This document shows, piece by piece, positions 10,223 to 38,808 of a DNA stretch of 64,000 nucleotides (its first letter is position 1; each line of letters starts with the position of its first letter). Under the pieces are notes generated by a model. It ran no database searches. It was not told the DNA's origin and was given only the letters and a program-made list of their open reading frames with translations. The DNA lies in contig JBBRAW010000002.1 of the NCBI GenBank assembly GCA_038206385.1, positions 6,261 through 70,260 on the forward strand. The letters run 5' to 3'. The stretch is from Bacteroidia bacterium (GTDB taxonomy: Bacteria; Bacteroidota; Bacteroidia; AKYH767-A; OLB10). A program made the translations under genes and the position numbers.

Positions 10223-10268
10223 AATTAATTCAGGCCTCCCTAAATCCCTCCGAAGGAGGGACTTTAAT
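10223..10268. repeat. REP-like GC-rich hairpin with conserved 5' flank
   Basis: TCCCTCC-GAA-GGAGGGA at 10245-10261. Flank AATTCAGGCCTCCCTAAAT (10227-10245) recurs exactly at 38257-38275 and nearly at 38292-38309. Confidence 0.75.
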
Positions 10269-10355
10269 GGAATGAATTTCCAGAATGTTATATTATCCGA
10301 TTCAAAAGACAACAAAAAAAATATTAAAATTTAAGCATAAACAATGAAAGAAGCG

Positions 10356-10540
10356 GTGCGGCTGTGGTCAAGCGTAAGAGCGAACTATCAATTGATGGAC
10401 CGATGAAGAAAATAGAAAGTAATGCCTTTTGTTTTTCACTTAATGTCTTTTTAGAAAGTACAATGTTCAATTGATAGTTGGTTACGCTTGTGGGCTTTTC
10501 TTTGGTTCGTTTCTTTTGCCCACCAAAAGAAATGAACAAA
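10356..10540 (+). ncRNA. Structured non-coding element, copy A (long stem plus 3' pseudoknot/hairpin); RNA versus ssDNA function unknown
   Basis: Pairings 10369-10377/10482-10490, 10383-10395/10467-10479 and 10505-10518/10524-10537. Homologous and covarying with 38520-38708. G-T pairs favour the + strand. Confidence 0.6.
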
Positions 10541-10866
10541 ATATTAATTGAAAAACAATTATTTATTTACCAAAAATTTAAATCGAAGCACGTTATTAAA
10601 AAATAATCGGAGAAACTATGTTTCATTTCCCCACCAAAATAAATGAACAAACATAAATTGAAAAACAATTATTTATTTACCAAATATCAAAATCGAAGTA
10701 CGTAAAAAAAAAGAATCGAAGAAACAATGTTTCATTTCCCCGCCAAAAGAAATGAACAAAACAAAATTGGATAACGATTATTTATTTACCGCTAGACAAA
10801 ATCGAAGCAGGCAACTAAAAAATCGAAGAATTTATGTTCCTCTCAAACATTAAAAGAAATAAAAAC
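10520..10866. repeat. Degenerate ~110-bp tandem repeat, 3 copies plus a partial
   Basis: Units start CC(A/G)CCAAAA(G/T)AAATGAACAAA at 10520, 10631 and 10740 and share ATTATTTATTTACC and AAATCGAAG. Partial fourth unit near 10846-10866. Confidence 0.9.
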
Positions 10867-16877: not shown

Positions 16878-18404
16878 CTAATGTTTAAAATGACGAATAT
16901 TTGTAATTACCATCGCCATCCCCGATTTATTGGCTTCGTCAGTCGAATCTTGATCGCGTAATGAGCCTCCTGGTTGTATCACAGCAGTCACTCCTGCCTC
17001 ATGTGCAATCTGTATACAATCTGGAAATGGGAAGAAAGCATCCGATGCCATCACCGATCCTTCAATAGAAAATCCAAAATGATTTGCTTTTTCAATAGCC
17101 TGTTTCAATGCATCAATGCGCGATGTTTGTCCAACTCCACTCGCTAGCAATTGCCCATCTTTAGTCAAAACGATTGCATTACTTTTACTATGCTTCACAA
17201 CTTTATTCGCAAAAACTAAATCTTTGTATTCAGATGCCGTTGGAACTTTCGTTGTAACAACTTTCATGTCTGCGATTTTTTCGATGCTATTATCGGGTTC
17301 CTGAACAAGAACTCCATTAAGTACGGTTCGCAAATTTTGTACGGATTTATTATATGACGTTGTCTCTAATAGAATTCTATTTTTCTTGCCTTGTAAAATC
17401 ACTAATGCTTCTTCCTCAAATGCTGGCGCCATTAAAACTTCGAAGAATAACAGATTCATCGATAAAGCTATCTCTTTCGTGATCACTTTGTTACTTACAA
17501 TCACACCGCCAAAAGCAGAAACTGGATCACCAGCCAATGCTTTTTCCCACGCCTTTAATAAGGAAGGATCACTCGCTATTCCACAAGCATTATTATGTTT
17601 GATAACAGCAATCGTTGGCTCCTCAAAATCATTGATGAGGTTTAACGCTGCATCAACATCTAATAAATTATTATAAGAAAGTTCTTTGCCATGTAGCTGT
17701 CGAAAAACTTCCGTTAGGTTGCCTTTAAAACTTGCTTTTTGATGTGGATTTTCTCCATATCGCAACGATTTACTTTCCCATGATGATGGAATTTCTATAG
17801 AAGGCTTTTGCTGATCCTTTTTTGCAAACCAGTTAAAGATGGCAGTATCATAAGTGCTACTTACGTTGAATGCCGATAATGCTTGCGCCTTTCTCTCTTC
17901 AACTGATGTTTTACCATCCTGATTTTCAAGAATATCAATTAATTTAGGATAATCATTAACGGTAGGAATAATCACTACATCATTAAAATTTTTGGCAGCA
18001 GCTCTTATTAGTGAAATACCACCAATGTCAATTTTTTCGATAATCGCTTCTTCGGTCTCGCCTGATGCAACGGTTTCTTGAAAAGGATATAAATCAACAA
18101 CGATCAAATCGAGAAATGGCAATTTGAATTCTTCCATTTGAGATTGATGTTCTTCGTCGTTGCGGATGGCAAGTATTCCTCCAAAGACAGCAGGATGTAA
18201 TGTTTTCACTCTTCCGCCAAGAATCGATGGGTAGCCAGTGATGTCTTCAACAGCAATAACTGGAATTCCCATTTGCTGAATGAAATCGAAAGTTCCACCT
18301 GTTGCATAAATCTTAACCCCTAAACGGTGCAAATGTTTAACAATTGTATCAAGACCATTTTTATGGTAAACCGATAGCAGAGCCGACTGAATAGTATTTT
18401 GCAT
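16878..18404 (-). CDS. purH: Bifunctional AICAR transformylase/IMP cyclohydrolase
   Basis: GGRVKTLHP, IDIGG, LRYGENPHQ, SDAFFPF and RHFKH C-terminus. Confidence 0.97.
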   Translation of the reverse strand: MQNTIQSALLSVYHKNGLDTIVKHLHRLGVKIYATGGTFDFIQQMGIPVIAVEDITGYPSILGGRVKTLHPAVFGGILAIRNDEEHQSQMEEFKLPFLDLIVVDLYPFQETVASGETEEAIIEKIDIGGISLIRAAAKNFNDVVIIPTVNDYPKLIDILENQDGKTSVEERKAQALSAFNVSSTYDTAIFNWFAKKDQQKPSIEIPSSWESKSLRYGENPHQKASFKGNLTEVFRQLHGKELSYNNLLDVDAALNLINDFEEPTIAVIKHNNACGIASDPSLLKAWEKALAGDPVSAFGGVIVSNKVITKEIALSMNLLFFEVLMAPAFEEEALVILQGKKNRILLETTSYNKSVQNLRTVLNGVLVQEPDNSIEKIADMKVVTTKVPTASEYKDLVFANKVVKHSKSNAIVLTKDGQLLASGVGQTSRIDALKQAIEKANHFGFSIEGSVMASDAFFPFPDCIQIAHEAGVTAVIQPGGSLRDQDSTDEANKSGMAMVITNIRHFKH

Positions 18405-38216: not shown

Positions 38217-38406
38217 ATTTTTTTTCACAGATTTCCAATTGAATGGCAAACATAAAAATTCAGGCCTCCCTAAATATGTTCGGGTTTCCAAAATTAATTC
38301 TGGCCTCCCCTTCGCCTTCGGACTTTTAATTTACGATATCTAAATGGATTTTATTTCCAAGTGAAAAATTATACATAACCACGTGCGGCTGCGGTCAAGC
38401 TAAAAT

Positions 38407-38486
38407 AAATTACCCCGAAGGGGCCACGAGGTGGAAAATTAAGAATTAAAAATTATCCCGAAGGGACCACTATTTGGCGAATTAAG
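38407..38486. repeat. Two 37-bp direct repeats, each with a C-GAA-G mini-hairpin
   Basis: AAATTA-CCCCGAAGGGG-CCACGAGGTGG-AAAATTAAG (38407-38443) and AAATTA-TCCCGAAGGGA-CCACTATTTGG-CGAATTAAG (38450-38486). Confidence 0.8.
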
Positions 38487-38519: not shown

Positions 38520-38752
38520 GTGCAGGGGCGATCCAACGAAAAGTGCGAAGTGATCATTCGTGTACCGATGAAGTGAGATAATAGCAATGCAGATTTGGGC
38601 TTTTCTTAATGATGAAAAATAGTTGCACTATGATGAATGATCGCTTGGTTTTCGTTGGTGTGCTTTTCTTTGGTTACTTTCTTTTGCACACCAAAAGAAA
38701 GTGACAGAACAAAATAGGATAACGATTATTTATTTTCCACTTATCAAAATCG
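38520..38752 (+). ncRNA. Structured non-coding element, copy B, with one 3' tail unit
   Basis: Pairings 38533-38542/38649-38658, 38548-38561/38633-38646 and 38673-38686/38692-38705. Tail GGATAACGATTATTTATTT..CAAAATCGAA matches unit 3 of the 10.5-10.9 kb repeat. Confidence 0.6.
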
Positions 38753-38808
38753 AAAAACGAAATTAAAAAAACATCTTAAAAACGAAATTCAAAAATATAA
38801 TCAAGAAA

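Follow-up and report, generated by a model that had tools for sequence, protein, structure and literature searches.

A dispersed intergenic element with a predicted pseudoknotted triple-helix core in a Bacteroidia genome and in many other bacterial phyla

A 64,000-nucleotide (nt) stretch of the draft genome of a Bacteroidia bacterium (GenBank assembly GCA_038206385.1, contig JBBRAW010000002.1, positions 6,261 to 70,260; hereafter the window) contains two copies of a structured element, copy A at 10356-10540 and copy B at 38520-38708, both on the + strand. Our reading, held tentatively, is that they belong to a dispersed, non-coding, horizontally spread intergenic family whose core may form a triple helix in RNA and block 3' exonucleases. 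Comparison of copies establishes, at the level of sequence, the predicted helices, a pseudoknot stem, a three-way matching of tracts, the strand concerned, the copy numbers and the patchy occurrence. It demonstrates that a single strand, of + polarity, has been selected to keep two predicted long helices (in this genus), the pseudoknot stem and the register of the putative triplex. A full copy in the genus would thus consist of a genus-specific 5' domain and a 46-nt core shared across phyla.

Copies A and B have the same fold, as the initial annotation of the window had proposed: a stem P1, an asymmetric internal loop, a stem P2, an apical part of ~70 nt and a separate 3' hairpin. The minimum free energy is -57.6 kcal/mol for copy A (z -3.79) and -60.8 kcal/mol for copy B (z -3.90), and in each case none of 200 shuffled sequences was as stable. 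Both copies lie downstream of a + strand gene (waaA and ppx) in a convergent gap, as annotated; the flanking genes encode a Kdo transferase and an FtsW/RodA protein for copy A, and a Ppx/GppA phosphatase and a SprT-like protein for copy B. The conserved block extends beyond the ends first given, to ~10620 in copy A and to ~38785 in copy B. The annotated 3' hairpin is real; what had been missed is that it belongs to a candidate pseudoknotted triple-helix motif.

This motif is the 46-nt 3' core, which is common to many phyla. On the + strand, it comprises a short variable word, an 8-base pyrimidine tract with one C, a single G, a 13-base pyrimidine arm, a loop and a 13-base purine arm, in that order. 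The 8-base tract mirrors the tract of the pyrimidine arm and, read in parallel, each of its bases consequently has a match in the purine tract, as U.A-U triples and one C+.G-C triple; Watson-Crick pairing of the same two tracts is impossible because the C would be out of register. The variable word just before the tract (4-6 bases) is complementary to the first bases of the hairpin loop. This complementarity and the mirror tract together suggest an H-type pseudoknot in which the first loop would lie in the deep groove of the second stem. In copy A, the 5' strand of the pseudoknot stem S1 (10492-10495, partner 10518-10521 in the hairpin loop) is followed by the third-strand pyrimidine tract L1 (10496-10503, mirror of the purine tract 10525-10532), the pyrimidine 5' strand of the hairpin S2 (10505-10517), the hairpin loop (10518-10524, the 3' strand of S1 plus a short A/C linker) and the purine 3' strand of S2 (10525-10537). 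The module of copy B occupies 38660-38705, with S1 at 38660-38663 and 38686-38689, the third strand at 38664-38671, and S2 at 38673-38685 and 38693-38705.

A search for the core with an exact 20-base pattern detected it in at least 120 stretches (128 pattern matches, 83 with a complete purine arm) from Beta- and Gammaproteobacteria, Bacteroidota, Clostridia, Spirochaetota, Rhodothermales, Fusobacteria, Cloacimonadota, Peregrinibacteria and others. A variant of the core is present on the Ralstonia GMI1000 megaplasmid. The statistics that follow in this paragraph are all among the matches listed. For the 83 complete cores, the predicted pseudoknot stem has a mean length of 3.93 base pairs (bp) versus 2.18 bp with shuffled partners (the maximum of 200 shuffles was 2.58), and it is found in 64 distinct combinations. 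When the matched loci were scanned for any polypurine/polypyrimidine hairpin, with no third tract required, a mirror word of at least 7 bases was found just upstream of 88 of the 97 hairpins, versus none of 32 in other-strand readings. A script counted 16 distinct mirror words, including a few shortened versions of the consensus; ~11 are truly different by reading. The variants have the C shifted, doubled or tripled and reach lengths of 12-13 bases. In all 81 asymmetric cases, the mirror word is longer than any direct-repeat word. The wobble count of the hairpins is also uneven, with 39 G-U cells versus 2 A-C cells of 1092. This excess identifies the + strand as the structured strand, as had been suggested from the G-T pairs of the window copies. 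Across phyla, the three tracts co-change in ~11 patterns which, with the pseudoknot stem and the strand signal, indicates that the predicted triplex register is itself under selection.

The 5' domain carries its own record of compensating changes, as anticipated for P1 and P2 in the initial annotation. In an alignment of 14 copies from the window's own genome, 14 of the 55 predicted pairs are changed on both sides. A genus alignment of 46 distinct copies from four species agrees: P1 is paired in 94.7% and P2 in 94.8%, with both sides changed in 5 of 7 and 8 of 13 pairs, respectively, and the structure as a whole outscores each of 500 shuffles by all five measures, and every slid control too. 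In copy A, an unpaired 5' motif (10356-10368) precedes the 5' strand of P1 (10369-10377, partner 10482-10490), the 5' side of the internal loop (10378-10382, 3' side 10480-10481), the 5' strand of P2 (10383-10395, partner 10467-10479) and an apical domain whose loops are conserved at the genus level (10396-10466); the 3' strand of P2, the two-base loop side and the 3' strand of P1 fill 10467-10490. Copy B has the unpaired 5' motif at 38520-38532, the 5' strand of P1, the internal loop and the 5' strand of P2 at 38533-38542, 38543-38547 and 38548-38561, the apical domain at 38562-38632, and the 3' strands of P2 (38633-38646) and P1 (38649-38658) separated by the two-base loop side. After the core comes an A/T-rich tail that is common to copies of the genus (10538-10620 in copy A, 38706-38785 in copy B).

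The observation that stems diverge while loops stay fixed holds within the genus but not beyond it. By eye, the layout is kept in two other genera of the family, where the stems differ and the apical part is shorter. In G079, a closed genome from the same class, the same 3' core follows a 60-nt 5' part that is quite different, so the 5' domain is lineage-specific. A crude test for the 5' motif across phyla did not discriminate: the count was 32 of 64 for the sense strand and equally for the other, among the matches listed.

The element had been described as present in two copies. This does not stand: a profile built from the 14 own-genome copies and searched against the 207-contig draft genome (G000) matches 31 places. 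These are 14 full-length copies, one weaker full-length copy, two truncated copies (one cut by a contig end), ten copies of the 3' module only, two short 5' fragments and two weak antisense echoes of the palindromic hairpin. Stems of the copy B type recur in one other full copy and one partial copy. The 3' module and its A/T-rich tail form tandem arrays with a 128-nt period on four contigs, and copy A itself is followed by two more degenerate 3' units in tandem (~10620-10729 and ~10729-10823, together 10620-10823, + strand; own-genome coordinates C2:16880-16989 and 16989-17083). Many copies sit at contig ends, as expected of a repeat that breaks assemblies.

All three other species of the genus that we searched carry many copies. 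BLAST detected the element in 9 of 41 genomes, G000 included, and outside the genus only its 3' part. The exact core is present in 5 of 401 sampled Bacteroidota genomes (14, 11, 10, 1 and 1 copies), with no match to a reversed control pattern, and copies within one genome of this sample have the pseudoknot word in common. Among viral (phage) contigs, only six stretches carry the core. The content of inter-gene gaps differs between sister species. The gap between ppx and sprT holds ~590 nt of repeats in the window versus ~48 nt and none of the repeats in the sister species G003, which gives the empty orthologous site that the initial annotation had proposed looking for; the waaA gap offers no clean empty site because synteny is broken and the neighbour gene differs. 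The patchy multi-copy occurrence, the near-identical cores across phyla and the empty ppx-sprT gap point to a probable horizontal spread of the element with local amplification. The suggestion of a non-autonomous dispersed element fits this copy number, the patchy spread and the empty gap.

The element prefers the sense position just after a gene, a preference that is moderate and not strict. Based on crude calling of open reading frames (ORFs), 10 of 16 clusters in the own genome have a co-oriented upstream gene, and 12 of 14 have an opposite downstream gene. The upstream gene is co-oriented for 8 of 9 copies in G079 and for 6 of 9 in another carrier, G297. In the pan-bacterial set, among the matches listed, it is co-oriented in 27 of 44 cases, and 2 of 38 gaps are divergent. 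Head-to-head inverted pairs of cores, ~400-1100 nt apart, are found in four loci (L097, L141, L146 and L112).

In our favoured reading, the + strand would supply all three strands of a pyrimidine-motif triple helix. The 8-base pyrimidine tract would run parallel to the purine arm of the 13-bp hairpin, forming U.A-U triples and one C+.G-C, and the 4-6 bases before the tract would pair with the hairpin loop to close an H-type pseudoknot. The fold would form in RNA that comes from read-through of the upstream gene or from a promoter of the element itself. As a compact block to 3'-to-5' exonucleases, it could fix and protect the 3' end of that RNA, in the manner of ENE/MALAT1-type triple helices and REP hairpins. 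RNA is favoured because only the pyrimidine-motif strand both fits the wobble pairs and can work as RNA. It is favoured also because the predicted pseudoknot and 5' domain exceed the needs of a DNA triplex, and because of the sense bias behind genes.

Several points weigh against this reading. The core has no intrinsic terminator or clear promoter, and about one-third of the copies are not co-oriented with the upstream gene, so read-through alone cannot be the rule. The three-way matching would serve a triplex in single-stranded DNA equally well, as covariation cannot tell RNA from DNA. The commonest tract words are near-invariant across phyla, beyond what triplex geometry needs, which hints at a binding partner or at recent transfer. 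The joining of an 8-base third strand to a 13-bp stem through a one-base link would be sterically feasible by geometric reasoning only. Of the 88 mirror cases, 66 carry words that the search pattern required; the ~22 others are further copies from those loci, to which this bias does not apply. Finally, copies within one genome are kin, and the counts overstate their independence.

A possible, if on balance unlikely, alternative is that the core is a DNA-level intrastrand triplex repeat of the BoxC/PIT/TMECO kind. In this view the fold would arise where DNA is transiently single-stranded or supercoiled, causing polymerases to stall and favouring rearrangement, and the repeat would persist as selfish or neutral DNA with no role in RNA. 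The inverted pairs, the local tandem arrays, the many copies at contig ends, the differing inter-gene content of sister species and the lack of an overall strict strand rule all agree with this. The excess of G-U over A-C (39 versus 2, among the matches listed) argues otherwise, as it favours the pyrimidine-motif strand, which would need protonated C in DNA at neutral pH; on the purine-motif strand, A-C mismatches would be found instead. A DNA triplex needs neither a covarying pseudoknot stem nor, as in this genus, a covarying 5' domain of 130 nt, and the moderate sense bias relative to the upstream gene also speaks against it. Potential intrastrand triplex elements are reportedly treated in Hoyne et al. 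2000, a source cited by Holder et al.

Holder et al. 2015 (PMC4666352) catalogued intrastrand triplex motifs across 5246 prokaryotic genomes and plasmids, and the intrastrand-triplex repeats BoxC/PIT/TMECO, as far as that paper's text describes them, are the kind that the predicted core most closely resembles. According to its account, TMECO/BoxC is G/C-rich and always intergenic, has 23 copies in E. coli K-12 with no strand bias and with inverted pairs, is described without a link to a gene class or to transposons, is distributed very unevenly among close relatives and is associated with genomic instability. The element behaves as TMECO does in that account, being intergenic, many-copy and uneven, with inverted pairs and no gene-class or transposon link. 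Its likeness to the PIT/ITxF motifs of the paper lies in three consecutive blocks on one strand that follow the triplex rule (88 of 97 hairpins versus 0 of 32, among the matches listed) and in being intergenic, many-copy and uneven between relatives, with no transposase in cis and with inverted pairs. In the scheme given there, the + strand core would fall in class IV (Hoogsteen pyrimidine, pyrimidine and purine blocks) and the other strand in class II.

The differences are also clear. TMECO, as described in PMC4666352, is a proteobacterial G/C-rich purine motif whose consensus is fixed and whose stems are 9 bases long, with loops of 3-6 and 3 bases. The element is A/T-rich and occurs in many phyla; the strand that the G-U pairs mark bears a pyrimidine motif, and the second loop contains a covarying pseudoknot stem. 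This second loop is mostly 7-10 bases long, whereas the ITxF search reported in the paper allowed loops of 1-6 bases. We reject membership in the TMECO/BoxC family itself, as the tracts are A/T-rich with 1-3 C/G positions and E. coli genomes searched with a gammaproteobacterial copy gave no match. According to the same paper, RNA forms intrastrand triplexes with the pyrimidine motif but not with the purine motif. The tract words of the element do not occur in its main text, although its supplements and database may list them.

No match to the window was found in Rfam 15 at the gathering threshold, and only chance-level matches appeared at E values up to 10. Eight loci of the genus had none either, and 18 loci of other phyla returned only a fluoride riboswitch. 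This riboswitch (L150:2627-2691, a Mucilaginibacter locus) is an ordinary one, unrelated to the element. Published literature searched by the sequence words of the element contained nothing relevant, and by topic no bacterial long-triplex RNA family was found. The initial annotation could match the element to no named family, and this stands for Rfam, but a described kind does exist for the core in the intrastrand triplex repeats of PMC4666352. It had added that a hit to a described family would remove the novelty: judging from what that paper's text covers, the resemblance is to a kind and not to a family.

Telomerase RNA and the SAM-II and preQ1-II riboswitches contain H-type pseudoknots whose 5' loop forms U.A-U triples within the deep groove of the second stem. 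The predicted topology of the element matches theirs, as it is generally known and to the extent that PMC7583470 treats it. These are single-copy RNAs with 3-6 triples and a partner or ligand that is known, whereas the element would have 7-13 matched layers, is many-copy and has no linked gene. In passages of the triple-helix reviews PMC7583470 and PMC13541005, the bacterial cases named are riboswitches and group II introns only. With ENE/MALAT1, as portrayed in this literature, the element would share a run of U.A-U interrupted by C+.G-C, a buried A-rich 3' strand and the proposed role as a block to 3' decay. An ENE, in these accounts viral or eukaryotic, uses a U-rich internal loop of a stem to clamp a poly(A) tail or an A-tract at the 3' end; in the element, by contrast, the third strand would be loop 1 of a predicted pseudoknot.

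A broader reading is that one RNA module, spreading horizontally, is common to many phyla: a triple helix of 8 to ~13 layers of U.A-U and C+.G-C triples, locked by a pseudoknot, that would cap RNA 3' ends against exonucleases. It would be a bacterial counterpart of ENE/MALAT1, and in this genus it would have been linked to a 130-nt structured RNA of its own and multiplied into dozens of copies. We regard this as rather doubtful. Bacterial intrastrand triplex repeats had been catalogued as DNA motifs of unknown function, as PMC4666352 presents them. The element makes an old question testable, namely whether cells contain such triplexes, whether these consist of RNA or DNA, and what purpose they serve. 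Cultivable carriers exist, among them Mucilaginibacter conchicola, Aquimarina litoralis, Chitiniphilus shinanonensis, Methylobacter marinus and Silvimonas terrae. It also matters for annotation, as it breaks assemblies and fills inter-gene gaps.

An improbable alternative is a non-autonomous mobile element that, as folded single-stranded DNA, would be cut and pasted by an HUH Y1 transposase (IS200/IS605- or RAYT-like) encoded elsewhere. Y1_Tnp (PF01797) is present in 9 of 10 tested carriers (G000-G003, G020, G079, G153, G297 and G415); none was found in carrier G006, whose genome is 89% complete. However, Y1_Tnp is also present in 64 of 101 Bacteroidota genomes, and the co-occurrence is therefore uninformative. 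The strand-specific structure would suit such an element. By eye, the nine listed copies of G079 have no target duplication and start after a loosely conserved four-base word, as mobilisation of this type would allow; on the closed chromosome, these nine copies show no two-block orientation pattern of the replichore type, which speaks against it. Short hairpin arrays like those adjoining the element flank Y1 genes in G000, but the repeats flanking these genes are other families. To our knowledge, no Y1 end carries a long triplex.

Five Y1 (IS200/RAYT-like) genes of G000 lie outside the window (C120:8990-9334, C50:665-1006, C3:68446-68784, C1:57506-57850 and C5:62463-62825). Four of the five are flanked by short G+C hairpin arrays, a different repeat family for each, an arrangement that resembles RAYT/REP. 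REPs are palindromes of 20-40 bp, and REP/BIME repeats are associated with RAYT genes. The element resembles REP/BIME in its mosaic intergenic clusters of hairpin modules and in the hairpin arrays beside the Y1 genes of its own genome. A REP family with its RAYT was nonetheless rejected, as the hairpins beside the five Y1 genes of G000 belong to other families. BrickBuilt, a Porphyromonas gingivalis MITE (miniature inverted-repeat transposable element), is described in PMC4596501 with 23-nt units, terminal inverted repeats and a single-species range. The element resembles it as a Bacteroidota intergenic element with internal tandem units. Neither REP nor BrickBuilt, the latter as far as that paper describes it, has the triplex-matched third tract or the cross-phylum core of the element. 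An assignment as a MITE by terminal inverted repeats also fails, as the long inverted repeat (P1/P2) is internal and the conserved sequence continues on both sides.

It is highly improbable that the copies are transcribed on their own as small RNAs, be it as regulators acting in trans or as a self-cleaving ribozyme, with the 5' domain as the working part and the core as a 3' cap. The conserved unpaired loops and covarying stems of the 5' domain in the genus, the conserved A/T-rich box at a fixed short distance upstream and the lack of any matching Rfam family would fit such RNAs. In other lineages, however, the 5' part is replaced by unrelated sequence, and 3' modules stand alone or in tandem arrays without a 5' domain. 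No block resembling a catalytic core is common to the phyla, and the 5' motif test (32 of 64 on either strand, among the matches listed) shows no preference. The mention of a ribozyme-like family in the initial annotation finds no support, as nothing speaks for a ribozyme.

No gene linked to the element was found. The 1007 ORFs within 2.5 kb of cores, among the matches listed, clustered into generic families only, with no formal search made for an autonomous partner, and the 24 co-oriented downstream ORFs are heterogeneous, with no constant gene class. A riboswitch or cis-regulatory leader is ruled out by these heterogeneous downstream genes and by the convergent gaps of both window copies. 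TnpB (PF07282) was found in none of five genomes (G000-G003 and G006) while control genomes were positive, which excludes an IS200/IS605-derived element with a TnpB guide RNA. Reverse transcriptase (PF00078) was likewise found in none of the five. This, with no intron or msr match in Rfam, excludes a retroelement-linked RNA (retron, group II intron or defence reverse transcriptase) as well as the group II intron fragment suggested by the first letters of the element. The IS110 recombinase (PF01548) is present in three of the five and was not found in G000 or G003, both with many copies, which excludes an IS110 bridge-RNA element.

The gaps that hold the element contain other repeats. Modules recur upstream of both window copies and of most others. 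One is a G+C hairpin followed by a T run and another an A/T-rich box whose distance is short and fixed; units made up of two mini-hairpins also recur. Arrays of mini-hairpins similar to those adjoining the element flank five Y1 transposase-like genes of the own genome. These recurrent upstream modules and the similar arrays beside Y1 genes indicate that element-bearing gaps are mosaics of several repeat families. Upstream of copy A, on the + strand, a G+C hairpin followed by a T run (10233-10268, by hand count) is REP-like or terminator-like and recurs upstream of many copies. The conserved A/T-rich box (10326-10342, + strand) lies ~15-30 nt before the first conserved bases, from a comparison by eye of 18 upstream flanks of copies and fragments. 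Upstream of copy B, also on the + strand, are an isolated 5' fragment of an A-type copy (38383-38400) and two REP-like mini-hairpin units (38412-38477), similar to units that flank Y1 transposase-like genes. The compound of this fragment and the two units is also present on four other contigs.

Some copies carry small inserts. A 19-nt palindromic mini-insert is found within P1 in L048, L053 and L057 (G002) and in L066 and L072 (G003), on the 5' strand of P1 in some copies and, as its reverse complement, on the 3' strand in others. It is present elsewhere in G000 too, and resembles a tiny nested mobile hairpin. An insert of ~62 nt in the loop of the 3' hairpin, with the arms kept, is found in eight copies of G001 and G003 (L042, L047, L051, L055, L056, L068, L072 and L073), and similar loop inserts of 55-76 nt are found in the proteobacterial copies L111, L128, L129, L173 and L180. 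A gene after the 5' domain in some of the G001 and G003 copies was ruled out, as this ~62-nt insert has no ORF. In proteobacterial loci (L084, L085, L088, L091, L096, L141 and others), by eye, a second small hairpin lies 3' of the core with a loop complementary to the bases that follow, and may form a second pseudoknot. Downstream of two G003 copies, a conserved ORF of 65-70 amino acids (L051:1897-2109, + strand; L047:1070-1267, - strand), which may be spurious, sits within a further shared repeat block of ~550 nt.

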